The notes beneath the pieces were generated by a model. The model worked only from the letters and a program-made list of their open reading frames with translations, made no database searches and was not told the DNA's origin. From Candidatus Gastranaerophilales bacterium (GTDB lineage Bacteria > Cyanobacteriota > Vampirovibrionia > Gastranaerophilales > Gastranaerophilaceae), in assembly GCA_947587605.1 (NCBI GenBank), contig CANPYB010000001.1, forward strand, positions 1 to 50,901: a stretch of DNA of 50,901 nt. The letters are read 5' to 3'. The position numbers were made by a program, and so were the translations under genes. Shown piece after piece: positions 3,076 through 50,901 of the stretch (positions are counted from its first letter, which is position 1; every line of letters begins with the position of its first letter).

Positions 3076-4562
3076 TATTTATTTTTCTCCGATATTTCTT
3101 TTATTGCATTATCAAGTATATCTATCATTACATTTTTATAGTGAATTGCCTGTTTTTTCTTTTTCGCTTCAAATCTTAGAGTGAAAACAGGTTCTGTATT
3201 GCTTTGTCTTATGAGTGCAAACCCGTCGGGGAATATTATTCTGAGCCCGTCAAGTGTTACAATGTCAGTTATTTCGCTGTCAAAAATATTATGGTCTTTT
3301 TTAATTTCTGCTTGTACTTTTTTTAATACTTCTTTTTTATATTCATTTTTGCAGGAATATCTGACTTCATCCAGTGTGCATACTTTATCAAACGGAGTTA
3401 AAAGCTGAGATAATTTAAAATCTTTATTGTTCTTTTTATTTTTAGCAACGATTTCAATAATTCTGCAGCCTGCATATATTGCGTCGTCAAATCCGTAATA
3501 TCTGTCTTTAAAAAACATGTGCCCCGACATTTCACCTGCTAAAATTGCATTAACTTCTTTCATTTTAGACTTAATATACCCATGACCTGTCTTCGCCATG
3601 ACGGCTATTCCGCCTTGCGCATTTATTTCATCAAATAAAACTTGGGAGCATTTAACTTCCGAAACAATAACAGGCTTTTCTCCGCGTATAACAAGGTTTT
3701 TAATTATATCTTGAGCATAAATGTAAAGTAATTTATCTCCGGTAAGCGCATTGCCGTCAGAGTCTATTACACCAAGCCTGTCAGAGTCGCCGTCAAATGC
3801 AATGCCTAAATCGGCATTTGTTTCTTTAACTTTATTTTTAATGTCTTCCAAAGTGCTTAAATCACTCGGGTTAGGGTGGTGATTAGGAAAATCACCGTCG
3901 GGTTCAGAGTATAATTCAACCACTTCACAGCCTAAATCTCTGTATAATTTTGGTGCAACAACACCTGCAGTGCCGTTAGCACTGTCTATTACTACTTTTA
4001 TACCCTCTCCAATTCGTGCAAATTTCGTTACCATAGAATCTATGTACTGAGGGATAATATTATATAATCGGCTTTCACCGTGTTTTACCGATGTAATATC
4101 ATTTGACATTTGTTCATGAGTATATTCTTTGACTTTTTTTATTTCATTTTCATCTAAAGAAACTTTGTTATAAGTCATTTTTAAACCGTTATATTCGGGC
4201 GGATTATGGCTGGCGGTAACAATCAAAGCGGCGCTTATTTTAATGTTTTCACTGATATTTTCGGGATAGGATGTAAATTCAGAATAATATCCTAACGGAG
4301 TCGGAACTAAATCAAGATTTATGACATTAGCCCCCATGTGAACAATCCCTTTTGCAAGAATTTTTGCCAGTGATTCCGAATGTTTACGAGCGTCTTTTGA
4401 TATGGTAATCCAAATATCTTTAGGTTTTAAACCCGATTTTTTTTGTATATAATTAACAAATCCTTTACCTGTATAATAGAACAATTCTTCTGTGATATCT
4501 TCGCCGTATACACCTCTTATATCATTTTTTCCGAATGCTTCTAAGTTTAATATTTTTGTCAT
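3075..4562 (-). CDS. phosphoglucomutase/phosphomannomutase family protein
   Basis: Active-site TASHNPPEYNGLK, metal loop FDGDSDRLG, sugar loop GEMSGH. Its TAA overlaps the sppA ATG by 1 nt. Confidence 0.9.
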   Translation of the reverse strand: MTKILNLEAFGKNDIRGVYGEDITEELFYYTGKGFVNYIQKKSGLKPKDIWITISKDARKHSESLAKILAKGIVHMGANVINLDLVPTPLGYYSEFTSYPENISENIKISAALIVTASHNPPEYNGLKMTYNKVSLDENEIKKVKEYTHEQMSNDITSVKHGESRLYNIIPQYIDSMVTKFARIGEGIKVVIDSANGTAGVVAPKLYRDLGCEVVELYSEPDGDFPNHHPNPSDLSTLEDIKNKVKETNADLGIAFDGDSDRLGVIDSDGNALTGDKLLYIYAQDIIKNLVIRGEKPVIVSEVKCSQVLFDEINAQGGIAVMAKTGHGYIKSKMKEVNAILAGEMSGHMFFKDRYYGFDDAIYAGCRIIEIVAKNKKNNKDFKLSQLLTPFDKVCTLDEVRYSCKNEYKKEVLKKVQAEIKKDHNIFDSEITDIVTLDGLRIIFPDGFALIRQSNTEPVFTLRFEAKKKKQAIHYKNVMIDILDNAIKEISEKNK

Positions 4563-8966: not shown

Positions 8967-9040
<74 letters not shown>

Positions 9041-9136
9041 TTTTTTGTGTTTATTATTTACAATCGTAACATTTACTTTTATTTTGAGCAATTTTATTTT
9101 TTTACCTTCTTTATTTTCTGCATAGAAAGGAAAAAT

Positions 9137-10090
9137 ATGAAAATATCTGCTATTGGTTCTGACATAAATATCTTTAAGTCTTATACGAACAAGAATGCAC
9201 GATTGAATTTAATTCAAGATACTTTTATAAAATCAAATAATATAAATTTTAAAGGCAGTTCTCAAAACCCGCAATATGATGCACTTAAATCTGAAATGAC
9301 AGATTTGATTATGAATGAGGCAGGTTTTGATTTAAAATCAATAGAAAGAATAATTCAAAAATATTCACCGTCTACAACCTTTGATGATTATAAAAATCTT
9401 CCCAAAAATAACAATACTCATACTTATACTGCAGGATACACTCAGCAGCAGGTTAGCTTCTTGGTAAATGATAGCGGGCATTTAGTTGCAAAATCTTTAC
9501 CGCAAAAAATTTATGTAGCTGTTCCAAATACCTGTGATAAAAATGGCAGAATTATTTTTTTAGACAGAATTTTGCATGAATGTACACATGTTATGCAAAA
9601 TGAAACTTCTAATCATTTATCTTATGAGGATTTTTATAATCAATATTTTAGTAAAATGGATGATGTTGAAAAAGCACTTAATTCATTAAAAGCAGCAAAC
9701 TTTATTTATAACAGTGTCGAAAATGATGCACTTATGATTCTTGCTTATGGAATGAAAGATAAATTTGGTTCATTACCAAAACCAGTTTCTAAATATAAAA
9801 ATGATTTGAACAGTATTTTTATGAAAATAAAGCGTTCAAGTACTAAAACATATTTTACAAGTTTAATTGAAAATAGTGTTAAAAGTTTAGGAAGTAGTGT
9901 TGATAAGCAATTAATTATTGATTTTATAAAATTAAAATCCCAAAATGAAAAAGAGGCATATCAAAATGCGCTTAATTCCGACAAAGAATTGTTAAGTATT
10001 TCGGGATATACTGATTTCGATTTAAGAATTGAACTTTATGAGTCAATAATATCCGCTTGTGAAACCTTATTACAGAATAATAATCAGTAA
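9137..10090 (+). CDS. hypothetical protein with HExxH motif (possible zinc metallopeptidase)
   Basis: Start moved to MKISAIG, preceded by aggaaaaat. Contains LHECTHVMQNE. Its stop codon lies inside the 50-bp island repeat. Confidence 0.5.
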   Translation: MKISAIGSDINIFKSYTNKNARLNLIQDTFIKSNNINFKGSSQNPQYDALKSEMTDLIMNEAGFDLKSIERIIQKYSPSTTFDDYKNLPKNNNTHTYTAGYTQQQVSFLVNDSGHLVAKSLPQKIYVAVPNTCDKNGRIIFLDRILHECTHVMQNETSNHLSYEDFYNQYFSKMDDVEKALNSLKAANFIYNSVENDALMILAYGMKDKFGSLPKPVSKYKNDLNSIFMKIKRSSTKTYFTSLIENSVKSLGSSVDKQLIIDFIKLKSQNEKEAYQNALNSDKELLSISGYTDFDLRIELYESIISACETLLQNNNQ

Positions 10091-10137
10091 ATTATTTAAT
10101 TAAAATACAGCAAGAGCCTAAAATCATAATTGCGCTT
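10088..10137. repeat. left island direct repeat (attL-like)
   Basis: taaattatttaattaaaatacagcaaGagcctaaaatcataattgcgctt. It encodes an orphan copy of the last 14 codons of the EamA gene on the minus strand. Confidence 0.75.
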
Positions 10138-10484
10138 ACAGAAATTTTATGCGATTTTTCGTTTATTATTTTTAAAACATAGTGTTTTTTATATGAGCTA
10201 TACATTAATGAATCAGATATGGAGTTAAATATTCTGCGGTTTATTTGTAAATATCTGTTAATATGTTTTTTCTCCTTTTTCCTTTTTTTTAACGAATGAC
10301 GAGCAGAGGGTGCTTTACAAAAGTTTTGTATATTGATTTAAAGATTTTATTTTTTTTAAAAATAAAAGGTAGCAAAAACTTTAATTTTTGTATTTCTTTA
10401 TGCAATCTGTTTTTTTAAAATTGCTGCTTTAAAGTTTATGAATTATTGCTTTTCAGTAAGTAATTAAAAAAGAAAGGAAAAAAT

Positions 10485-11027
10485 ATGTGTACAGTAGAAC
10501 CAATTAGAAATATGGAAGATTTAAAAAAAATTGAAAAAATCTTAAAAAAACAAAGTTTAAGAAATTTACTATTATTCTTAATTGGAATTAATTGCGGTTT
10601 ACGTATTTCGGACATACTAAATTTGGACGTTAAAGATGTAAAGAATAAAAATTATATAAATATATTTGAGATTAAGACAGGGAAATATAAAAGATTTCCA
10701 ATTAACACGAAACTAAAACCGCTTTTAAAAAAATTTACCAAAGACAGAAATGATGATGAACCTTTATTTATTTCTATTTTTAATAATAGAATGGAACGAA
10801 CTCAATGTTACAGAATCATAAAAAAAGCCTGTCAAGATGCAGGTATAGATTATATTGTCGGAACTCATACTTTAAGAAAAACTTTTGGTTATCATCATTA
10901 TCAGAAATTCAAAGATGTTGCAATATTACAAAAAATATTCAATCATTTCACTCCTCAAGTAACATTAAAGTATATAGGTATAGATCAAGACCGGATAGAT
11001 GAGAGTTATATTAATTTTGTTTTATGA
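10485..11027 (+). CDS. small tyrosine recombinase/integrase (catalytic domain only, 180 aa)
   Basis: Catalytic signature present: GLRISD (R), HTLRKTF (H..R), FNHF (H), TLKYIG (Y). Confidence 0.85.
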   Translation: MCTVEPIRNMEDLKKIEKILKKQSLRNLLLFLIGINCGLRISDILNLDVKDVKNKNYINIFEIKTGKYKRFPINTKLKPLLKKFTKDRNDDEPLFISIFNNRMERTQCYRIIKKACQDAGIDYIVGTHTLRKTFGYHHYQKFKDVAILQKIFNHFTPQVTLKYIGIDQDRIDESYINFVL

Positions 11028-11055
11028 ATATAAATGTTATAAGTTATGGGTAAAA

Positions 11056-11238
11056 TTTATCTCAACAATATTATAGAATTGTTGAGATAAAATTAAAATT
11101 AACTATTTAAGTTTAACACAAAAATTTTTATATTTATAAATTGTTAAATATATTAATAAAATTTTTAACTGCTTAATTTCAGATATAGTTTGTATTCTAC
11201 CAATCTGAGCATACAACAATTCTATAATATTGTTGCAT
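11056..11238. promoter_or_regulatory. candidate invertible switch: two lox-like sites in inverted orientation flanking 129 bp
   Basis: Site 1 (11056-11091): 14-bp arms around spacer attataga. Site 2 (11211-11238): arms around spacer tctataat. The 22-bp cores 11063-11084 and 11214-11235 are exact reverse complements. Confidence 0.5.
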
Positions 11239-11278
11239 AAATTTAAAATTGTTTAATCGCTAAATAATCGGTGGAATA

Positions 11279-12133
11279 ATGGTAAAAGTTTCAATTATAA
11301 TACCTTGTTATAATCAAGGACAGTATGTTGCCGAAGCAATTAATTCCGCATTATCACAGACATACTCGGATATAGAAATAGTATGTATTAATGACGGTTC
11401 AACAGATAATACTCATAAAATAATTAAGAGTTTTGCAGATAAGTATAAAAATATATTATACATTAACAGTGAGAAAAATAATGGTGTAATTTATTCACGA
11501 AACACTGCAATTAACGCCTGTCATGGTGAGTATATATTACCATTAGATGCAGACGATAAAATAGAGTCTGCTTATGTAGAGAAGGCAGTAAAAATATTAG
11601 ATACTAATCCTAATATTGGGATTGTTTACTGCAAAGCAAGAATATTTGGCAAAAAAAATAGAAATTGGAAATTAAAAAAATTCAATAAATCTGACATATT
11701 ATATGAAAACTGTATTTTTAACACCGCATTGTTCAGAAAATCAGATTTTTTAAAAGTCGGAATGTATAAAAATTACATGATGAATGGTATGGAAGATTTT
11801 GATTTATGGCTTTCATTTATTGAACAAGGTCTTGATGTTTATCAAATTGATGAAGTTTTGTTTTATTATCGTAAATATGACCAAGAAACGAGAACACAGA
11901 TATTCCAAAAAAATCAAAATGAAATTTGGCTGTCGGTAATCAAAAATCACATAAATTTATATTTAAATGATAGACAATTTCTTGAAAGACTTATATTTTC
12001 TAAACCGTTAGAAGCAAGGAAAAAATATAAAAAATACAAAAACATTTTTTATATTTTACTTGCAATAACTGCTATTGAGTTAATGATAATTCTAATCTTT
12101 ATAATTACCTTAGTTTGGAGGGGTAATGTATAA
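11279..12133 (+). CDS. family 2 glycosyltransferase
   Basis: VSIIIPCYNQGQYVAEAINSALSQTY, INDGSTDNT and LDADD motifs, with a C-terminal TM segment. Confidence 0.85.
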   Translation: MVKVSIIIPCYNQGQYVAEAINSALSQTYSDIEIVCINDGSTDNTHKIIKSFADKYKNILYINSEKNNGVIYSRNTAINACHGEYILPLDADDKIESAYVEKAVKILDTNPNIGIVYCKARIFGKKNRNWKLKKFNKSDILYENCIFNTALFRKSDFLKVGMYKNYMMNGMEDFDLWLSFIEQGLDVYQIDEVLFYYRKYDQETRTQIFQKNQNEIWLSVIKNHINLYLNDRQFLERLIFSKPLEARKKYKKYKNIFYILLAITAIELMIILIFIITLVWRGNV

Positions 12134-13439
12134 AGAAAAGGTTTTTATTATAACCCAGAATGAAATTGTAAATACTACAGGCGGAGCTATTACATCTTTT
12201 ACAGATATTTCTAAATTTCTTTGCGAAAAATATGATGTATATGCTATTTGCTATACAAAAGAAACCCGAAATCCTAATTTAGATGAAAGAATTAAATTTA
12301 TAAATTTATACAATTATTATGGAGGCAGAAATACATTTTCAAAGGCTATAAATCTTTTTATTAAAGAGAATAGACCGTCTATTATTCTTTTTTTCTTTGC
12401 ATATTTATATGTTAATGCAAAATTGTCTAAAAAATATAATGATATTCCAAGAATATTATTATTTAGGTCAAGACCTGATTTTTATTTTGCGGTACATAAA
12501 AAAACAAAACATTTAAAAGATATATATATTAATACAATTTCACAAATTTTATTTCCAAGCTATCACAAATTATTACCCGAATATATAAGGAATAAAAATG
12601 TTGTTTGTATTCCAAATCCAACGAAATCGGTATTAAAATATATAAATACCGATGCGGAAAATAAGAAAATAATATATTTAAGCCGAATAGACTGTTGGAA
12701 AGGTCATGAATTTTTAATAAAGTCTTTTGCTCTGATTGCAAATAAATATAAAGATTGGACTATTGATATATACGGGCAGTCTCAGCCGCCGGAGCTTGAG
12801 CTGCAATTAAAGAAACTCGTTAAATCTCTGCACTTGGAAAATCAAATTCATTTTTGCGGAGTGACGAAAAATCCGTTTGAAACATTCATAAACTATGATT
12901 TTTGTGTATTTCCGTCTTATTTTGAGGGATTTCCCAATGGACTTTCAGAAGCGTTAAGCGTAGGTTTGCCTGCGGTCGGATTTAAAGGTGCCAGCGGTGT
13001 AAATGAATTAATTATTGATAATAAGAACGGGCTTTTGGCAGAAGAAGACTATAGCGATTTTGCTGAGAAAATTGAAATTTTAATAAATGATAAGAAATTG
13101 CGTTCTAAATTTAGTCAAGAAGCAGTTAAATCAATGAAAAAGTATGATTACAATATTATAAAAGATACTTGGATTAATCTGATAAATGAAACATTAAGCA
13201 ATAAGTGTACGGAACAGAGTAAGGAATTATATTCGGTTTCAGAAAAGTATGAATTATTTTCCATTAATAAATTACTTTCTATGCAAAATTCAAACATGAA
13301 ATTTTCATATCGTAATTTTGCAGAAAAAATATTTTCTATAAAAAATTATTACTCAAATTCCTGTAAGAAAATTTTAACAATATTAGGAATGAAAATAACA
13401 ATAAAAAAGCAGTTAAAGGAGAACGGGAGTGGGTATTAG
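12126..13439 (+). CDS. family 4 (GT-B, Glycos_transf_1) glycosyltransferase
   Basis: FPSYFEGFPNGLSEALSVGLPAVG motif. RBS ggagg; 8-nt overlap with the upstream gene. Confidence 0.85.
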   Translation: MYKEKVFIITQNEIVNTTGGAITSFTDISKFLCEKYDVYAICYTKETRNPNLDERIKFINLYNYYGGRNTFSKAINLFIKENRPSIILFFFAYLYVNAKLSKKYNDIPRILLFRSRPDFYFAVHKKTKHLKDIYINTISQILFPSYHKLLPEYIRNKNVVCIPNPTKSVLKYINTDAENKKIIYLSRIDCWKGHEFLIKSFALIANKYKDWTIDIYGQSQPPELELQLKKLVKSLHLENQIHFCGVTKNPFETFINYDFCVFPSYFEGFPNGLSEALSVGLPAVGFKGASGVNELIIDNKNGLLAEEDYSDFAEKIEILINDKKLRSKFSQEAVKSMKKYDYNIIKDTWINLINETLSNKCTEQSKELYSVSEKYELFSINKLLSMQNSNMKFSYRNFAEKIFSIKNYYSNSCKKILTILGMKITIKKQLKENGSGY

Positions 13440-14184
13440 TATAGGAATTATCGGCTGTGGATTTATTGGCGGAGCATTAAAAAAATGGATAGAAGAACAC
13501 AATCCGTCAATTAATATTTTGGTTTCAGATCCGCCAAAGGGAATGAATGATGATGTTTCAAAAGCTGATGCGATATTTATCAGTATTCATATTCCGACCG
13601 AGAAAAACGGAACACAAGATTTAACGCTGTTAAAAGAAATAATCGAAAATCTGCCTTTGAAAAAACCGATATTCATAAGAACGACAATAACTCCCGGCAC
13701 ATCAGACAGATTATCAAAAGAAACAGGCAGGCATGTATATTTTATGCCGGAATTTTTAACGGAACGAACAGCTTATGAAGATTTTTGTTCTCAGCCTATG
13801 GTGTTTACTGCAGAACCGGAATTACTAAGTTTGATTTTTAAAGGTAAAAAACACATAGAAATGTCTTCCTTAGAGGCAGAAATTACGAAATATGCGCACA
13901 ATGTATTCGGCGCATTAAAGGTAACATATTTTAACGGAATTTATGACTTATGCAAGAGATATGAGGCAAATTACAGAAAAATTCAACAAGGAATTTTATT
14001 AAGCGGATATATAAATACACCACACACACAAGTTCCCGGTCCTGACGGCAAATTCGGATACGGAGGCAAATGTTTTCCTAAAGATGTAAATGCGTTTACA
14101 AAAATTACGGAAGGACTTCCGCTGCACAGTTTATTAAAGGAATTACAACCTTTAAATATTAAATTTAGAGGTGAAGATAAATAA
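13429..14184 (+). CDS. compact UDP-glucose/GDP-mannose dehydrogenase-like protein
   Basis: Rossmann motif IGIIGCGFIGG, PEFLTERTAYEDF (cf. NPEFLREG) and catalytic-Cys motif GGKCFPKD. At 251 aa there is no C-terminal nucleotide-sugar-binding domain. Confidence 0.6.
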   Translation: MGISIGIIGCGFIGGALKKWIEEHNPSINILVSDPPKGMNDDVSKADAIFISIHIPTEKNGTQDLTLLKEIIENLPLKKPIFIRTTITPGTSDRLSKETGRHVYFMPEFLTERTAYEDFCSQPMVFTAEPELLSLIFKGKKHIEMSSLEAEITKYAHNVFGALKVTYFNGIYDLCKRYEANYRKIQQGILLSGYINTPHTQVPGPDGKFGYGGKCFPKDVNAFTKITEGLPLHSLLKELQPLNIKFRGEDK

Positions 14185-15203
14185 TGAAAGTATTAGTTAC
14201 GGGTAGTGCAGGGTTTATAGGTTATTTTGTTGCGTTGAGACTGCTAAAAGCAGGCTATACCGTTATTGGTATTGATAATGTTAATGATTATTATGATGTT
14301 AATTTAAAAGAAGCGCGGCTTAAAAATTTACATCAATTTGAAAATTTTATAGAAGAAAGAATAGATTTAGTTGATAGAATAAATTTAGAACGTATTTTTA
14401 AAGAGCATAAACCACAAAGAGTTTTAAATTTAGCTGCCCAGGCAGGAGTAAGATATAGTTTTGAAAATCCGTATGCTTATATAGATTCAAACATTACAGG
14501 TTTTGTAAATATAGAAGAACAGTGCAGACATAATGATGTTAAGCATTTTGTTTTTGCTTCAACCGCCTCAATTTATGGGGCAAATAAAAAAATGCCATGG
14601 GATGAAACAGACGGCTGTAATCATCAATTAAGTTTGTATGCAGCGACAAAAAAAGCAAATGAAGTAATAGCACATTCTTATGCGCATTTATTTAATATCC
14701 CGACAACGGGGTTAAGATTCTTTAATGCATATGGGCCCTGGGGCAGACCGGATATGGCTTTATTTATATTCGTAAAAAATATTATTGAAGGAAAACCTAT
14801 AAATGTATTTAATAATGGTCAAATGATTAGAGATTTTACTTATGTAGAAGATATTGCCGAGGGTGTTTGTAAAGTGCTTTTAGGGAAAGTTCCCGAAATT
14901 GATGAAAGTTGGAATGGGAATTCAGCTGTTCCTGACCCGTCTTCAAGCGGAGTAGCACCTTTTAAAATTTATAATATAGGGAATTCTCATCCTGTTGAAC
15001 TTATGCGGTATATAGAGCTTATGGAAAAAGAAATAGGCAAAAAAGCTATTATAAACTATATGCCGATACAACCGGGAGAAGTAGTTAAATCTGAAGCTGA
15101 TAATTCTGATCTTTATAAAAATTTTGATTTTAAACCTAAGGTGAATGTTGAAGAAGGTGTTCACAACTTTGTTAAATGGTATCGGGAATTTTATGGGAAG
15201 TAG
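14184..15203 (+). CDS. NAD-dependent epimerase, UDP-glucuronate 4-epimerase-like
   Basis: MKVLVTGSAGFIGYF, the YAATKKANE (YxxxK) motif, and the DNVNDYYDVNLKEARL signature typical of UDP-GlcA epimerases. Confidence 0.8.
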   Translation: MKVLVTGSAGFIGYFVALRLLKAGYTVIGIDNVNDYYDVNLKEARLKNLHQFENFIEERIDLVDRINLERIFKEHKPQRVLNLAAQAGVRYSFENPYAYIDSNITGFVNIEEQCRHNDVKHFVFASTASIYGANKKMPWDETDGCNHQLSLYAATKKANEVIAHSYAHLFNIPTTGLRFFNAYGPWGRPDMALFIFVKNIIEGKPINVFNNGQMIRDFTYVEDIAEGVCKVLLGKVPEIDESWNGNSAVPDPSSSGVAPFKIYNIGNSHPVELMRYIELMEKEIGKKAIINYMPIQPGEVVKSEADNSDLYKNFDFKPKVNVEEGVHNFVKWYREFYGK

Positions 15204-15206
15204 TTT

Positions 15207-15704
15207 ATGAAAATATTTAAAAAAATAAAATTTTACGACGGAAAAACAGAAATATTTTTATTTAACATAAAAGTATTTTCATACAGAAAAAAAGTTAATA
15301 ACGGATATGACAATGCCGAATACGTAAGGAGACTTGGCGTAAAAGTCGGTGAAAATACATATATTTGTTCCGGCTGTATATGGGGAAGTGAACCTTATTT
15401 AATTGAAATAGGAAAAAATTGTTTGTTATCGATAAACATAACTTTTTTAACTCATGATGCGTCGGTTCATGTGTGTAAACAGTATTTCTCCCAATCATAT
15501 ACAAGTGCAAACGCTGAAAATAATGCAATTTTTGGAAAAATCAAAATAGGGGACAATTGTTTCATTGGTTGTTCGTCAATAATTTTGCCGAACATAACTA
15601 TAGGAAATAACTGTGTAATTGGTGCAGGAAGTGTAGTGACAAAAAATATTCCCGATGGTGAAGTTTGGGGGGGGGCAGCCAGCTCATTATATAAAGAAAA
15701 CTAA
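15207..15704 (+). CDS. hexapeptide-repeat sugar O-acetyltransferase, C-terminus set by a G9 tract
   Basis: Left-handed beta-helix repeats (IGDNCFIGCSSIILPNITIGNNCVIGAGSVV). The G9 tract at 15667-15675 falls in the VWGG motif. Confidence 0.8.
   Translation: MKIFKKIKFYDGKTEIFLFNIKVFSYRKKVNNGYDNAEYVRRLGVKVGENTYICSGCIWGSEPYLIEIGKNCLLSINITFLTHDASVHVCKQYFSQSYTSANAENNAIFGKIKIGDNCFIGCSSIILPNITIGNNCVIGAGSVVTKNIPDGEVWGGAASSLYKEN
15667..15675 (+). repeat. homopolymeric G9 tract (candidate slipped-strand phase-variation site)
   Basis: Counted directly: tttGGGGGGGGGcagcc. Confidence 0.9.
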
Positions 15705-15865
15705 GGAATTAGCTGAAAAAATAGAAAATATTTTAAACAGCAGTGAACAGCTGGAACTGCAAAATATTATACAACAGCGGAACAGGAGTATGAAATAAAT
15801 AAACAAGGAAAATTAAGAATGAAAAAATACATAACAGGAGCAAAAGTATATAAAGGAGATTGTTT

Positions 15866-16727
15866 ATGTCGTTAAAAAAAGAAATTTTTTCAATAAGTAA
15901 CAAAATAATAAATAACAAGTCATATAAAGAAATTAAAATTTTGGGTATAAGATTAAGGTTTAAATCGAATCTTTCAAGACCATATAAATTTAAGGTAAAT
16001 TCAAAATATTTATCTAATAAATCAAAATTAGATCCATTCAAATATGATGACGATATGAATGATTTATACACATATTTTTTAAATTCTAATGATAAAAGTA
16101 TTGATAAAATGCATCATTACTTTCACATTTATAATAATCATTTTGAAAAATTCAGAAATAAACCCGTAAATATTTTGGAAATAGGAGTTTGCAAAGGAGG
16201 TTCTTTGCGAATGTGGAAAAAATATTTTGGAGAAAAATGCCATATATATGGGGTTGATATAGACCCTGCCTGCAAACAATATGAAGATTTAGAAAATAAT
16301 ATACATATTATGATTGCAGACCAGGGAAATCTAAAATCAATGCAGGATTTAATGAAACAGCTTCCCCAAATAGATATATTAATAGAAGATGGCGGGCATA
16401 CAACAAATCAGCAAATAACAACATTCGAAGCCTGCTACGATAAAATTTCCGATCTGGGGGGGGGTATATTTGGTAGAAGATTTGCATACTAACTATTGGA
16501 CAGAATTTATTGACTCCAAAAATACTTTTGTTGAATATGCAAAAGAACATATTGATGCTCTTAATGCCTGTTTCTTTAATTCAAATGACAGGTATAGAAG
16601 TTTGGAGGGAAAAGACAATTTGGAAGTTCCGTTATTTACTTGTATCACAGATAGCATTTCTTTTTATAACTCAATAATTGTTTTTACAAAAAAGAGAAAT
16701 TCAATTCCATTAAGTGAAAGAAGATAA
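15866..16727 (+). pseudogene. class I SAM-dependent (sugar O-) methyltransferase split by a frameshift at a G9 tract (phase-OFF state)
   Basis: Track ORFs 15860-16492 and 16470-16727 are two halves of one enzyme. LEIGVCKGGSLRMW and IEDGGH lie upstream, VEDLHTNYW downstream, and G8 would fuse them. ATG at 15866 with RBS aaggag. Confidence 0.8.
16456..16464 (+). repeat. homopolymeric G9 tract (candidate phase-variation site)
   Basis: Counted directly: gatctGGGGGGGGGtatatt. Confidence 0.9.
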
Positions 16728-16800
16728 AATCGGGTAGTCAGTATAAAACAAGGAAAAAATAAGAAAAATTTTAGAAAAATAAAAAAAGGAGCGATGTAAT

Positions 16801-17943
16801 ATGCAAAATGAAAATATGATACCTTTATTTAAAGTTTTTGTATCAAAAGATATAGATAAACCGTTACTTGAAACTATTCATAGCGGATGGATTGGCGAAG
16901 GACCGAGGGTTCAAGAATTTGAGGCGGTTTTGAAAAAATATTTTGGAAATGATAATTTGGTAACTTTAAATTCGGGTACATCGGGTCTGCATTTGGCTTA
17001 TCATATGGCATTACATCAAAATGATTATAAAGGTTATTATAATTCAAATGTAGATGAAATAATAACTACCCCTATTACCTGTACAGCAACAAATACTCCA
17101 ATTTTATGTAACGGAGCAAAAATAATTTGGGCTGATGTTGATCCTGTGACCGGTTCAATATCACCTGAAGATATAGAAAACAAAATAACTAAAAATACAA
17201 AAGCTGTTACAATGGTTCACTGGGGTGGTAATCCTTGTGATATAGATAAAATTAATGAAATTGCTCATAAAGCAGGAATTATGACAATAGAAGATGGTGC
17301 GCATTCTATGGGGATGGAATATAAAGGTAAAAAATTCGGCAACCATTCAGATTTTTCTGTTAATTCGCTTCAAGCAATTAAACATGTAACTTCTGTTGAC
17401 GGAGGTTTATTATGGATGAAATCTGAAAAAGATTATCAACGAGCAAAACTTTTAAAGTGGTATGGAATAGATAGAACAATAAGAGAAGGTATAGATTTAA
17501 GATGTGAAATAGATGTTCCGGAAGCCGGATACAAATTTCATATGAATGATGTTTGTGCATTAATAGGAAATGTTAATTTTAAACATTTACCGGAACTTCT
17601 TAAAAAACACAGAGATAATGCTAAATTTTATGATAAAGCATTTAAAAACTGTTCAAATGTTCTGCCTGTTTTGGAAAATCCTAACGGCAAATCTGCTTAT
17701 TGGCTGTATACAATTCATGTCGATAACAGAGACGAATTAATGCAAAAGTTAAAAAGTTTAAATATTATGTCTTCAAAAGTTCATGCAAGAAATGATACTC
17801 ACTCAATGTTTTCTGAATTTAAGTCCGAATTACCGGGAGTTGAAGCATTTAATAGAACACACTTATGCATTCCCGTAGGTTGGTGGGTAAGTGAAAACCA
17901 AAGAGAATATATTGCTGAACAAGTTATAAAGTATGCAAAGTAG
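16801..17943 (+). CDS. DegT/DnrJ/EryC1/StrS-family PLP-dependent sugar aminotransferase
   Basis: 380 aa with typical family layout: the IEDGAHSMG motif and a lysine region SLQAIKHVT. Confidence 0.85.
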   Translation: MQNENMIPLFKVFVSKDIDKPLLETIHSGWIGEGPRVQEFEAVLKKYFGNDNLVTLNSGTSGLHLAYHMALHQNDYKGYYNSNVDEIITTPITCTATNTPILCNGAKIIWADVDPVTGSISPEDIENKITKNTKAVTMVHWGGNPCDIDKINEIAHKAGIMTIEDGAHSMGMEYKGKKFGNHSDFSVNSLQAIKHVTSVDGGLLWMKSEKDYQRAKLLKWYGIDRTIREGIDLRCEIDVPEAGYKFHMNDVCALIGNVNFKHLPELLKKHRDNAKFYDKAFKNCSNVLPVLENPNGKSAYWLYTIHVDNRDELMQKLKSLNIMSSKVHARNDTHSMFSEFKSELPGVEAFNRTHLCIPVGWWVSENQREYIAEQVIKYAK

Positions 17944-17955
17944 GGGTGACTGTTA

Positions 17956-18585
17956 ATGAAAAAAATTCGAAGAAAATTAATCAATACGTTATTTAAAAAT
18001 AATATATTATATACAAGGCTTTATGTTTTTTTTCTTTATTTGAGTAAAAAGGAACTGAATTTGAATTTATGCTCCGGAACTTTATATGAAAAGGGCTGGA
18101 TAAATATTGATGAAAACGGTTCAAATAAAGTTGACTTGATTATGAATATAGTTAATATAAATAAATTTTTTAAAAAAAATTCAATAAAGAATATAAAAAT
18201 TATTCATGGACTTTCATATCTTAGATTTCATGAGGCTATAGATTTTTTGCAGTCTTGTTATAATTTGCTGGAAATTAAGGGGGGGGGGAAAATTATCATA
18301 GAATTTCCCGAAGTGAAAAAACTTTCAAATAGCATTATTAATATAAATTCTTTGTATGATGAAAAAAATTATTATGATTACATTGAAGCACTTCGTGCTT
18401 TTTATGCTTTTGATTTAGACCAGCATAAGAAAAAAGTTAAATATACTACATATAGATTTGGCTGGTCTGCAATGCATATTAAGTATGAATTGGAAAAACT
18501 TTCATATAAAAATATTGAAATAAAAAATCCGGAATATCACGATAAGAGATTAAATCGTGATGTCAGAATTGAAGCTCGGAAATAA
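17956..18585 (+). CDS. class I SAM-dependent methyltransferase-like protein carrying an in-frame G10 tract
   Basis: LNLCSGTLYEKGWINID (motif I-like) and LLEIKGGGKIIIEFP (post-I/III-like). The GGG is encoded by the G10 tract. Confidence 0.6.
   Translation: MKKIRRKLINTLFKNNILYTRLYVFFLYLSKKELNLNLCSGTLYEKGWINIDENGSNKVDLIMNIVNINKFFKKNSIKNIKIIHGLSYLRFHEAIDFLQSCYNLLEIKGGGKIIIEFPEVKKLSNSIININSLYDEKNYYDYIEALRAFYAFDLDQHKKKVKYTTYRFGWSAMHIKYELEKLSYKNIEIKNPEYHDKRLNRDVRIEARK
18279..18288 (+). repeat. homopolymeric G10 tract (candidate phase-variation site, currently in frame)
   Basis: Counted directly: attaaGGGGGGGGGGaaaatt. Confidence 0.9.
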
Positions 18586-18650
18586 AATGTACGGCAATTC
18601 TTTATAAAAATAGCCGATAATATTTAAATTTATGCGGATAGGATAAAACT

Positions 18651-19577
18651 ATGTTAAAAGATAAAAAAATAAATTTTATAACATCAACAGATGAAAATAC
18701 AGGTTCAACAAGAATTAGAGTATATGACTTAGTAAGAGAGTTAAAAAAAAGGGGCTATAATGTAACAATTAATGATAGTTCAAAAAAATCTGAAATCGTA
18801 GTATTTCAAAAAAGTAATTATAAATATTTAAGAAAACGTTTTTTTAAACTTTTGTTTAGTAATAAATTTTTAATATTTGATATTGATGATTTGTTTTTTG
18901 ATAAAATATTAAATCTTGTTAAATATTCGGATTTTGTTATTACAAGCTGTGAATATATGAGGGAACAATATTTAACATTTAATAAAAATATAGGAGTTCT
19001 GGGGGAAACACCTGATGTAATTGCGGAGGATATACCACTGCGAAATCCTATTGCAAATTTAAAGGAATGTAAGATAGGATGCTTTGGTACATCGTATAAT
19101 ATAACTTTGATAAAAAAATTCAATATAAAAGATGTTAAAATAATCACTCGAGGCGGGGATATTGAGTGGAGCAGAGAAACAGTTGATTATGATATCCAAA
19201 AATTTGATTTAATTGTAATTCCTCAAGAAAAAACTCCCGAAGGATTAGCAAAAGATAACTGCAGAATGTTAAAAACTCTTTATCTTGGTGTTCCTGCATT
19301 GGTTAGTGATATTCCGGAATACGTTAAACTTGCGGAGCTTGTAAATTATCCAAAAGAATTTATTGTACATGATGGTGAAGACTGGAACGAAAAAATTGAA
19401 AAAATAAAATCCGGTGAAATCAAGTTTGATTTTGATTTTGAAAAATGCAGAGAAATATTATACAAAAATTACAGTACAAAGGTAAGGACTGATATGTGGC
19501 TGGAAATTGTTTCAAGACATTATACTCAGCATAATCTAAAAAGACATTTGAAAAAGTTGTTCTTTCATTTGTTTTAG
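18651..19577 (+). CDS. putative glycosyltransferase (GT-B-like), weak call
   Basis: 308 aa. The C-terminal segment LGVPALVSDIPEYVKL resembles the GT4 donor-binding region. Last gene before the right repeat. Confidence 0.4.
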   Translation: MLKDKKINFITSTDENTGSTRIRVYDLVRELKKRGYNVTINDSSKKSEIVVFQKSNYKYLRKRFFKLLFSNKFLIFDIDDLFFDKILNLVKYSDFVITSCEYMREQYLTFNKNIGVLGETPDVIAEDIPLRNPIANLKECKIGCFGTSYNITLIKKFNIKDVKIITRGGDIEWSRETVDYDIQKFDLIVIPQEKTPEGLAKDNCRMLKTLYLGVPALVSDIPEYVKLAELVNYPKEFIVHDGEDWNEKIEKIKSGEIKFDFDFEKCREILYKNYSTKVRTDMWLEIVSRHYTQHNLKRHLKKLFFHLF

Positions 19578-50095: not shown

Positions 50096-50901
50096 TCAAT
50101 AGGTTACATTTTTTAAGCATTTTAATTTCCGACCATCAAAGAAAAATGCTTTAGCAGCTTTTTTTGTTCCGTCAGCTGCTTCTTTAGTCCCTTTTTGAAA
50201 AATAGGTAATTCTCCATCTTCAAAGGCAAGTAATGTAGCAGCTTCCTTTGTTCCGCCTAATGAAAATTTATTACCTTTTTGAATTTGAAATAATTTTCCA
50301 TCTTTAAAGAAAAATATTTTAGCAGATTTCTCTGTTGAGTCTGCTAAGTTCTTATAACCCATACGAAATTCAGATAATTTCCCATCATTAAATAAAAATG
50401 ATTTGGCAGTTTGTTCTGTTAAGTCAGCGTATTCTTTATAATATTTATCACAATTAATTAATTTACCATCTTCAAATAAAAATGATTTAGCTGTTTCTTT
50501 TGATCCGTCGGCTAATTCATTAAAATCTTTAGCACACTCAGTTAATTTCCCATCACTAAATATAAACGCTTTAGTAGTTTTCCATGTTCCATCTGCTCTT
50601 GCTTTAAGACCTGTTATCAATTGATATAATTTCCCATCTTCAAAGATAAACATTTTAGCAGCTTCACCTGTTCCGTCAGCAAGTTCTTTCATACCTTCTA
50701 TTATGTGTGTTATACTGTTATTTTCTAAGTATACAACATCTTTTAATCCTTTTTCTTTATAAGTTTCAATGCTGTTAATAATAACTTTATTATTTATTAA
50801 TGTAAAAGATGATTTTCTTTTTAAAATACCTTCTTGTAATTCTTCAAAAACTTTTTGTCCGTTTTCTTCTTTTATTTTTTCGGGACTTGATTTTAATGCT
50901 T
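50096..50901 (-). CDS. tandem-repeat protein (about six 33-34-aa repeats), 5'-truncated by the window edge
   Basis: Repeat unit ADGTxExAKxFxFEDGKL. By hand translation the frame stays open from 50692 to 50901, so the true start lies outside the window. Confidence 0.6.
   Translation of the reverse strand, partial: ALKSSPEKIKEENGQKVFEELQEGILKRKSSFTLINNKVIINSIETYKEKGLKDVVYLENNSITHIIEGMKELADGTGEAAKMFIFEDGKLYQLITGLKARADGTWKTTKAFIFSDGKLTECAKDFNELADGSKETAKSFLFEDGKLINCDKYYKEYADLTEQTAKSFLFNDGKLSEFRMGYKNLADSTEKSAKIFFFKDGKLFQIQKGNKFSLGGTKEAATLLAFEDGELPIFQKGTKEAADGTKKAAKAFFFDGRKLKCLKNVTY

Follow-up and report, generated by a model that had tools for sequence, protein, structure and literature searches.

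The locus analyzed here raises the question of whether the short intergenic region between the gene of a small tyrosine recombinase and a glycan-biosynthesis operon is a DNA switch that can flip between two orientations. It lies in contig CANPYB010000001.1 of a Candidatus Gastranaerophilales bacterium (assembly GCA_947587605.1), of which we analyzed the 50,901-nt stretch from position 1 to position 50,901 on the forward strand (hereafter, the window), together with related loci from other genomes. We consider it almost certain that the region is an inverton operated by a tyrosine recombinase, and probable that it turns the glycan operon on and off through the orientation of the segment that it contains. 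The layout is that of an inverton in the operational sense, with inverted repeats bracketing a short intergenic segment beside the gene of a site-specific recombinase.

The two repeats in the window are a proximal site 1, after the recombinase gene, and a distal site 2, ahead of the operon. Site 1 has two perfect arms of 14 nt, TTTATCTCAACAAT and ATTGTTGAGATAAA, which flank ATTATAGA, and an inverted-repeat search gave arms of 17 nt at 94% identity. In site 2, the arms CAACAAT and ATTGTTG flank TCTATAAT, and its spacer and that of site 1 are exact reverse complements. The cores of the two sites (11063-11084 and 11214-11235) are 22-mers that are 100% reverse complementary, with 129 nt between them, and the strict inverting unit, from spacer to spacer, measures about 151 bp. 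A preliminary description of this DNA, made from its letters alone, had given these arms, spacers and coordinates and had taken the cores for a single site present in opposite orientations; our check of the sequence agrees on all of these points. It had also stated that the motif occurs nowhere else in the window. Indeed, a search allowing at most 3 mismatches in the 50.9-kb window found the 22-mer at the two cores only, the generic pattern [CT][AT]ACA-N12-TGT[AT][AG] matched the two sites and nothing else, and none of 100 dinucleotide-preserving shuffles (0/100) contained a match to the 22-mer. The distances that it reported were likewise exact: the recombinase stop codon ends at 11027, 28 nt before site 1, and site 2 ends at 11238, 40 nt before the ATG of the first gene of the operon, a glycosyltransferase of family GT2, at 11279. 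The window has a G+C content of 31%, and the DNA around the switch that we scanned for promoters is 84% A+T.

We then looked for the same module in relatives. A scan of one genome per species found 591 relatives, the best 80 of which were examined as loci (these and the further contigs compared are designated below by L numbers, with P numbers for their recombinases). Almost all of these best 80 come from metagenome-assembled genomes of Gastranaerophilales/Melainabacteria, with several copies per genome, and one comes from a Helicobacter isolate. Where the sequence extended far enough, most loci had a palindromic site 10 to 70 nt past the stop codon of the recombinase gene, followed by its inverted copy 110 to 300 nt further.

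Inversion was evident in these relatives when we compared contigs that come from different samples of a single species and encode an identical recombinase protein (P0019, P0061, and P0015). With recombinases 73 to 78% identical to that of the window, the equivalent segment was present in both orientations, and the half-sites were swapped at the spacer. In the P0019 species (74% identical enzyme), where the order is recombinase, switch, second small recombinase, and GT2, the 153 nt past the stop codon are inverted between L117, L121, and L125 on one side and L118 to L120 and L122 to L124 on the other, with 97 to 99% identity and identical flanks. The proximal site of this species reads TAATTCAACAAAA, TTGCAC, TTGTGTTGAATTA in L117 and continues from TTGCAC into TTGTGTTGAGAA in L118, an exchange exactly at the spacer. 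In the P0061 species, 189 nt are inverted between L107 and L111 to L113 on one side and L109, L110, and L114 to L116 on the other, and in the P0015 species L089 is inverted, with the predicted right junction, relative to L090 to L094 and L097. Two close species with 98% identical flanks (L037 and L040) provide a further case, in which a 188-nt segment is inverted at 97% identity with exchange of half-sites at TAGCCA/TGGCTA; L034 represents the unflipped two-site form. The recurrence of the module, the conservation of the spacers within pairs, the presence of both orientations in relatives and an orthologous GT2-GT4 operon behind such a switch in another species strongly support the earlier suggestion that lox- or dif-like inverted sites form an invertible switch here.

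Some of these loci have more than two sites. Two direct sites and an inverted one were found in L037 (3590-3930) and in L107 and L108 (2060-2440). The P0061 species combines inversion and excision at this three-site locus, since L108 is missing what lay between two directly oriented sites. Among the natural variants of three-site loci are some with one segment inverted and some with the other precisely deleted (L108; L034/L040 versus L037), and a single enzyme-plus-site system appears able both to invert and to excise. In L089 (ENA ERZ16268122, scaffold_1025), the proximal site and about 113 bp are missing at 3543-3720; either this contig is a natural deletion variant locked in one state, or the scaffolding went wrong at the switch. 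Contigs also end in or just past a site in eight cases (L005, L012, L047, L068, L095, L096, L106, and L126), and 6 of the 80 species-representative contigs stop at most 121 nt from the recombinase stop codon, which by our own uncomputed estimate is far above chance. Such ends are expected where the two orientations are mixed within one sample, as a footprint of the assembly graph.

To obtain a consensus and mismatch counts, we aligned 31 site pairs on the centre of the palindrome. The consensus consists of the arms YWACA-N3 and N3-TGTWR around an asymmetric 6-bp centre, T-N4-A. Partner sites differ at only 1 of 186 positions in the central 6 bp, at 24/93 and 16/93 positions in the two inner-arm triplets (together 40/186), at 11/155 and 13/155 positions in the outer arms, and at about 50% of the positions in the flanks. 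The 31 pairs use 21 different spacers, none of which is palindromic, and several modules with different spacers coexist within single genomes. The method by which pairs were found is biased toward matches overall, yet it cannot account for a perfect centre between imperfect neighbours. A perfect spacer amid drifting inner arms is the pattern expected if strand exchange needs spacer identity, and from this alignment the central 6 bp should be the crossover region of a tyrosine recombinase. For the window, a spacer of 6 bp (TTATAG, between CAACAATA and AATTGTTG) is likelier than the 8 bp of the preliminary description when arms of at least 8 bp are taken over from the relatives; the asymmetry of the spacer and its sharing in inverted form stand. 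The TATAAT that each spacer reads outward, which had been pointed out, is coincidental because the relatives use so many different spacers. The similarity of the recombinases correlates modestly with that of the site arms (Mantel r = 0.19, p = 0.01), and we do not lean on this correlation.

We also analyzed the recombinase. As described earlier, it is a tyrosine recombinase of 180 aa reduced to its catalytic domain: PF00589 (cut-off 27.1 bits) matches residues 11 to 166 of 180 with a score of 93.4 bits and E = 1.8e-26. Only 10 residues precede this domain, no N-terminal domain was matched, and with a match of this extent there is therefore no space for a core-binding domain. R40 (in the sequence GLRISD), K64/K67/K69, H128 and R131 (H128-x-x-R131 in HTLRKTFG), H154, and Y163 are invariant in 32 homologues and align with residues of XerA (4a8e); we assign R40, K67 (or a neighbouring lysine), H128, R131, H154, and Y163 as the putative catalytic residues. 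The nearest solved structures are XerA 4a8e (E = 7e-16) and then XerH 5jjv. The XerA model scored best among the Xer models, with 89.6 bits against a cut-off of 220, and the scores were 53.8 bits with the FimB model (NF007371, cut-off 222) and 41.8 bits with the FimE model (NF007370, cut-off 221). The enzyme fell below every curated recombinase-family cut-off tested, in the case of the Xer equivalogs by a wide margin. Judged by its sequence, it is nearest to the Xer recombinases and lies outside the curated Fim and Xer definitions, so its earlier placement in the FimB/FimE size class holds for size only. It has more than 6000 homologues, the best 120 of which are nearly all exactly 180 aa long. 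The closest one, P0002 (82% identity), is encoded on an 864-bp contig with no recognisable site. A tblastn search of the window revealed no second copy of the recombinase.

The window locus itself is probably still capable of inversion, as its sites are intact and identical, its enzyme is full length, its layout is that of the relatives in which inversion is proven, and its state is like that of L117. In that form of the P0019 switch, as in the window, the proximal site is an extended palindrome and a conserved motif inside the segment points forward. The placement of the recombinase gene is of the Fim type, with an enzyme of 180 aa whose gene stops 28 nt from site 1, and from this we infer that the enzyme acts on the adjoining sites. 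We propose that it would bind both sites, each 22 to 30 bp long, as dimers, synapse them, and exchange strands within the asymmetric 6 bp (TTATAG/CTATAA). Because the spacers are oppositely oriented, the outcome would be inversion, not deletion, of the A+T-rich segment of roughly 150 bp. The predicted junctions of the flipped state are CAACAATATTATAGAATTGTTGTATGCTCAG and TTTATCTCAACAATTCTATAATATTGTTGCAT, with the halves ...TTATAGAATTGTTG joined to TATGCTCAGATTGG... and ...TAATTTTATCTCAACAATT joined to CTATAATATTGTTGCAT... Inversion would alter the input to the operon, since a motif at 11109-11126 is most likely a start signal that reads out of the segment. This motif faces the operon in the assembled orientation, which would be ON, and after a flip it would face the 3' end of the recombinase gene, which would be OFF. 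The predicted result is a phase-variable surface glycan.

The proposed start signal is a copy of the conserved inner motif, which has a consensus of about TATTATCACAAACAAA and occurs once in most family segments, about 25 to 30 nt inside one end. It reads into the segment, forward in most assemblies and reversed in others; besides the window copy on the + strand, it was found in L007, L008, L010, L013, L016, L020, L022, L033, L034, L037, L117, and other loci. The motif starts with nAnnnT and continues with ATCACAAAC; A2 and T6 of the -10 hexamer are thus preserved at its start. The window copy overlaps the hexamer that the preliminary description had read as a -35 element. Scored with a position weight matrix (PWM) built without it, this copy reaches 13.4 bits, the third best score in the window; its significance comes from its position inside the segment, where we estimate the chance of such a score at roughly 0.6%. 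The motif varies independently of the site arms and therefore probably does not represent a half-site of the recombinase. We regard it as the best candidate for a start signal, with a site for an accessory or host factor and a post-initiation element as alternatives. The Bacteroides promoter motif is absent, and an Rfam scan of 10900-11400 gave no credible match.

Several observations weigh against a switch of this kind, or against a promoter as its output. A single orientation was found both in the window and in L001 (1.6 kb, 2.3x coverage), the sole other contig with an identical recombinase, and a scan of JGI metagenome contigs for the 22-mer gave only chance matches in an unrelated coding sequence. 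Some members of the family have no detectable site pair, so the adjacency of gene and sites is no proof that the enzyme acts in cis. The hexamers put forward earlier as a promoter, TTTAAC at 11112-11117 and TATAAA at 11135-11140, separated by 17 nt, are present, but their status as a promoter did not hold up against shuffled sequences: sigma-70-like matches in this region of the window number 8, versus 9.6 +/- 2.8 in shuffles, and the sigma-70 consensus is not above shuffles in the 31 family segments either. The score of the inner motif falls within the range of window-wide shuffles (mean shuffle maximum, 14.8 bits), and over the whole window its PWM shows no enrichment upstream of other genes. 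In addition, the recombinase gene lies only 251 nt from the operon and is read in the same direction, so that the operon could be supplied by read-through instead of by a promoter within the segment. The segment might then invert with an output after initiation, acting on transcripts from upstream read-through as an orientation-dependent terminator, a Rho site, or an mRNA-stability element, as at the cwpV and flgB switches of Clostridioides difficile, or, in a variant of this explanation, feeding back on the recombinase mRNA at its 3' end, comparable to the orientational control of fimE. This would fit the arrangement of the two transcription units, the absence of a promoter signal above chance, and the 14-bp hairpin of site 1, which is present in this orientation only and which inversion would reduce to about 8 bp; moreover, the flagellar switch of C. 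difficile, of similar size, acts after initiation (PMC5386303). We nevertheless judge such an output unlikely, because the site-1 hairpin (-15.7 kcal/mol as RNA) has no U tract, no intrinsic terminator was called in the segment, and the -10-like start of the motif and its constant inward reading fit a start signal. Site 1 as a terminator was rejected on the first of these grounds.

The single orientation would also be accounted for if the window held a decayed or locked copy, with relic sites or an enzyme that no longer acts on them and with the operon fixed in one state. It was seen in two independent contigs, and locked or deleted relatives exist (L089, without the proximal site, and L108, without the stretch between direct sites). 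A minority orientation would escape a sample of two contigs, however, one of which has 2.3x coverage, and the identical 22-nt cores, the intact asymmetric spacer and a full-length open reading frame (ORF) for the recombinase, with all family-invariant residues kept, make a locked copy very improbable. If no recombination took place at all, the palindromes could be static elements, with site 1 terminating transcription of the recombinase gene and site 2 serving a dimeric regulator as its operator. Both sites are capable of forming hairpins and lie between two transcription units, site 1 right after the stop codon. Neither a terminator nor an operator needs an asymmetric spacer shared in opposite orientation, though, and with no U tract, homologous sites that exchange half-sites in relatives, and sites that track the recombinase gene across genomes, this explanation is scarcely credible. 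We give next to no credence to the enzyme being a genomic-island integrase or an Xer-type resolvase with att- or dif-like sites. Its Xer-like sequence and the Xer-type look of the arms would agree with that, as would a tRNA-Arg(TCT) gene 1.4 kb upstream (8967-9040), a G+C content of 23 to 28% over 9-12.6 kb, and a match to the "integrase" phrog_216 (E = 9e-61), which means that close relatives are present in phage/prophage collections. However, nowhere else does the window repeat 12 nt or more from the tRNA region, so that it shows no sign of an integrated island, the sites are inverted and only 129 nt apart, the enzyme has neither a core-binding nor an arm-binding domain, and genomes carry several modules with different spacers, unlike the single dif. 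A PHROGs search of the neighbouring genes found no prophage context. The reading that we retain is thus that of an invertible switch beside its own recombinase gene, and the coordinates of its features are compiled below.

Coordinates of the recombinase gene, the two sites, the segment between them and the downstream operon in the window
Feature	Positions	Strand	Remarks
Tyrosine recombinase gene, presumed invertase	10485..11027	+	180 aa, catalytic domain only
Site 1, proximal	11056..11091		14+8+14 palindrome; position and architecture as in relatives
Site 1 core	11063..11084		CAACAATA 11063-11070, TTATAG 11071-11076, AATTGTTG 11077-11084
Inter-core segment, predicted invertible	11085..11213		129 nt, 16% G+C
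Conserved inner motif, AAGTTTAACACAAAAATT	11109..11126	+	Family consensus about TATTATCACAAACAAA; operon-facing
Site 2, distal, inverted relative to site 1	11211..11238		Shorter palindrome than site 1
Site 2 core	11214..11235		CAACAATT 11214-11221, CTATAA 11222-11227, TATTGTTG 11228-11235
Glycan-biosynthesis operon, presumed target	11279..19577	+	Pfam and NCBIfam matches

Three side observations concern the surroundings of the locus and the search for its sites. The tRNA-Arg(TCT) gene directly precedes an unannotatable ORF of 347 aa with a GTG start, and the drop in G+C content extends over 9047-12600. An exact-protein look-up found no record elsewhere of the GT2 protein of the window. The chance matches to the 22-mer (L086, 4233-4254, and L087, 4750-4771) lie in a coding sequence resembling that of a membrane transporter, MATE-like by eye, of an unrelated organism of higher G+C content; a lone match to the 22-mer is therefore not diagnostic of a switch.

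The operon encodes GT2 and GT4 glycosyltransferases, a short nucleotide-sugar dehydrogenase-like protein, an NAD epimerase/dehydratase, a hexapeptide acetyltransferase, a methyltransferase, a DegT/PseC-type aminotransferase, and two unknown proteins. The dehydrogenase-like ORF (13429-14184, 251 aa, GTG start) has an N-terminal GxGxxG and a central domain and no C-terminal domain, which would mean a short variant or else a gene of the operon that has been truncated. Orthologs of the GT2 (69% identity) and GT4 (74%) proteins are encoded behind a recombinase and a switch in L016, from another Gastranaerophilales genome. In relatives, glycan genes make up most of the first genes behind switches. 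Among these first genes (n = 56; the counts stand without a background comparison), we found 8 GT2, 2 GT8, and 2 GT9, as well as FdtA, epimerase, and NTP-transferase genes, and GT4 also occurs in this position in relatives. Not all of the first genes are related to glycans, since 6/56 encode second small recombinases and 4/56 small LuxR-type regulators. A second small tyrosine recombinase (151 to 177 aa) comes first behind the switch and is followed by glycan genes in L002 (4891-5346), L089 (3715-4242), L117 (2241-2771), L014, L020, L030, L039, L075, and L077. This arrangement suggests cascades of recombinases. Regulators of the LuxR/GerE type (94 to 192 aa) are encoded about 260 nt past the recombinase stop codon in L035, L043, L061, L065, and L073, and a conserved 106-aa ORF precedes the GT2-GT4 pair in L016 (3934-4251) and L063 (3840-4157). 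The window contains neither a small LuxR/GerE-type regulator nor the 106-aa ORF.

Outside the uncultured genomes, the module was found in the cultured isolate Helicobacter sp. 13S00401-1 (L083; NZ_MLAR01000003.1, 3001-3900), which encodes a 58% identical recombinase of 180 aa. Its site pair is canonical, with the spacer TGAGCA and 181 nt between the sites, and a cytidylyltransferase gene lies downstream. This copy hints at horizontal spread of the module. In L107, from the P0061 species, the module comes directly after Mu-F-like, D12-methyltransferase, and tail-S-like genes.

Taken by itself, the locus in the window is of moderate interest, which would grow if the family proved to consist of orthogonal switches and cascades. 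We put forward only tentatively, as a possibility somewhat short of evenly balanced, that minimal Xer-like invertases of 180 aa form a family, seemingly undescribed in the searchable literature, that has multiplied in gut Gastranaerophilales as orthogonal glycan switches with spacers of their own, some of them cascading and some with three sites. A single genome would then carry several mutually orthogonal switches on its surface-glycan operons, and the recombinases with their sites would be among the smallest self-contained pairs known. Gastranaerophilales are common in the human and animal gut and uncultured, and little is known of their dealings with host immunity and phages. Repeated switches on glycan operons would mean that they vary their surface as Bacteroides and C. 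difficile do, and this uncultured lineage of the human gut would thereby have its first described phase-variation system. No report linking Melainabacteria, Gastranaerophilales, or Vampirovibrionia with invertible promoters was found in the searchable literature, and one survey counted a single hsdS inverton in that phylum. Switches of this kind also explain why contigs recurrently break just past such genes, and an assembled orientation has to be read as one of two states. Small enzymes that seemingly act on short, self-contained sites with private 6-bp spacers are, in addition, candidates for compact orthogonal tools in genome engineering.

How does this switch compare with known ones? FimB and FimE, of about 180 to 200 aa, have no separate N-terminal core-binding domain, and their target fimS is a 314-bp element with 9-bp inverted repeats that needs IHF and Lrp. 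The window resembles the fimS system in that a small recombinase gene lies directly upstream of, and is co-directional with, a short invertible element serving a surface structure, and possibly in that the orientation affects the recombinase mRNA at its 3' end. It differs from fimS by its palindromic sites of 22 to 30 bp with a 6-bp spacer, its segment of about 150 bp, and its one recombinase instead of two. The switches of the C. difficile tyrosine recombinase RecV (cwpV, flgB, and others) are similar in dimensions, as invertible segments of about 150 to 200 bp between imperfect inverted repeats of roughly 21 bp that lie before surface or virulence operons. RecV works in trans at several switches, none of which adjoins its gene, whereas members of the window family usually have their own adjacent recombinase and their own spacer. 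The flgB switch, 154 bp with 21-bp inverted repeats, acts after transcription initiation and was found through a segment that aligned between strains only as its reverse complement (PMC5386303), which is the route followed here.

With Xer/dif, the window shares two inverted arms around a 6-bp centre, and XerA and XerH are the closest proteins by sequence. Arms of the type TGTTAA/TGTTGA are, as we take it, reminiscent of the XerD arm of dif. Unlike Xer recombinases, the enzyme has 180 aa instead of about 290 to 360 and no N-terminal core-binding domain. Its sites are two, inverted and placed by an operon, and not a single one at the terminus; there are several paralogous modules, and the predicted reaction is inversion instead of dimer resolution. 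The capsular invertons of Bacteroidales are comparable as systems of gut bacteria with several invertible regions before glycan loci, whose orientation varies between samples and is visible in assemblies. There, Mpi is a globally acting serine recombinase and Tsr are larger tyrosine recombinases, and the host of the window family belongs to a different phylum, as Gastranaerophilales are non-photosynthetic relatives of Cyanobacteria. The kind of switch is thus known from fimS, RecV, and Bacteroides, and what is new here is the lineage, with a minimal Xer-like enzyme and lox-like sites as distinctive features.

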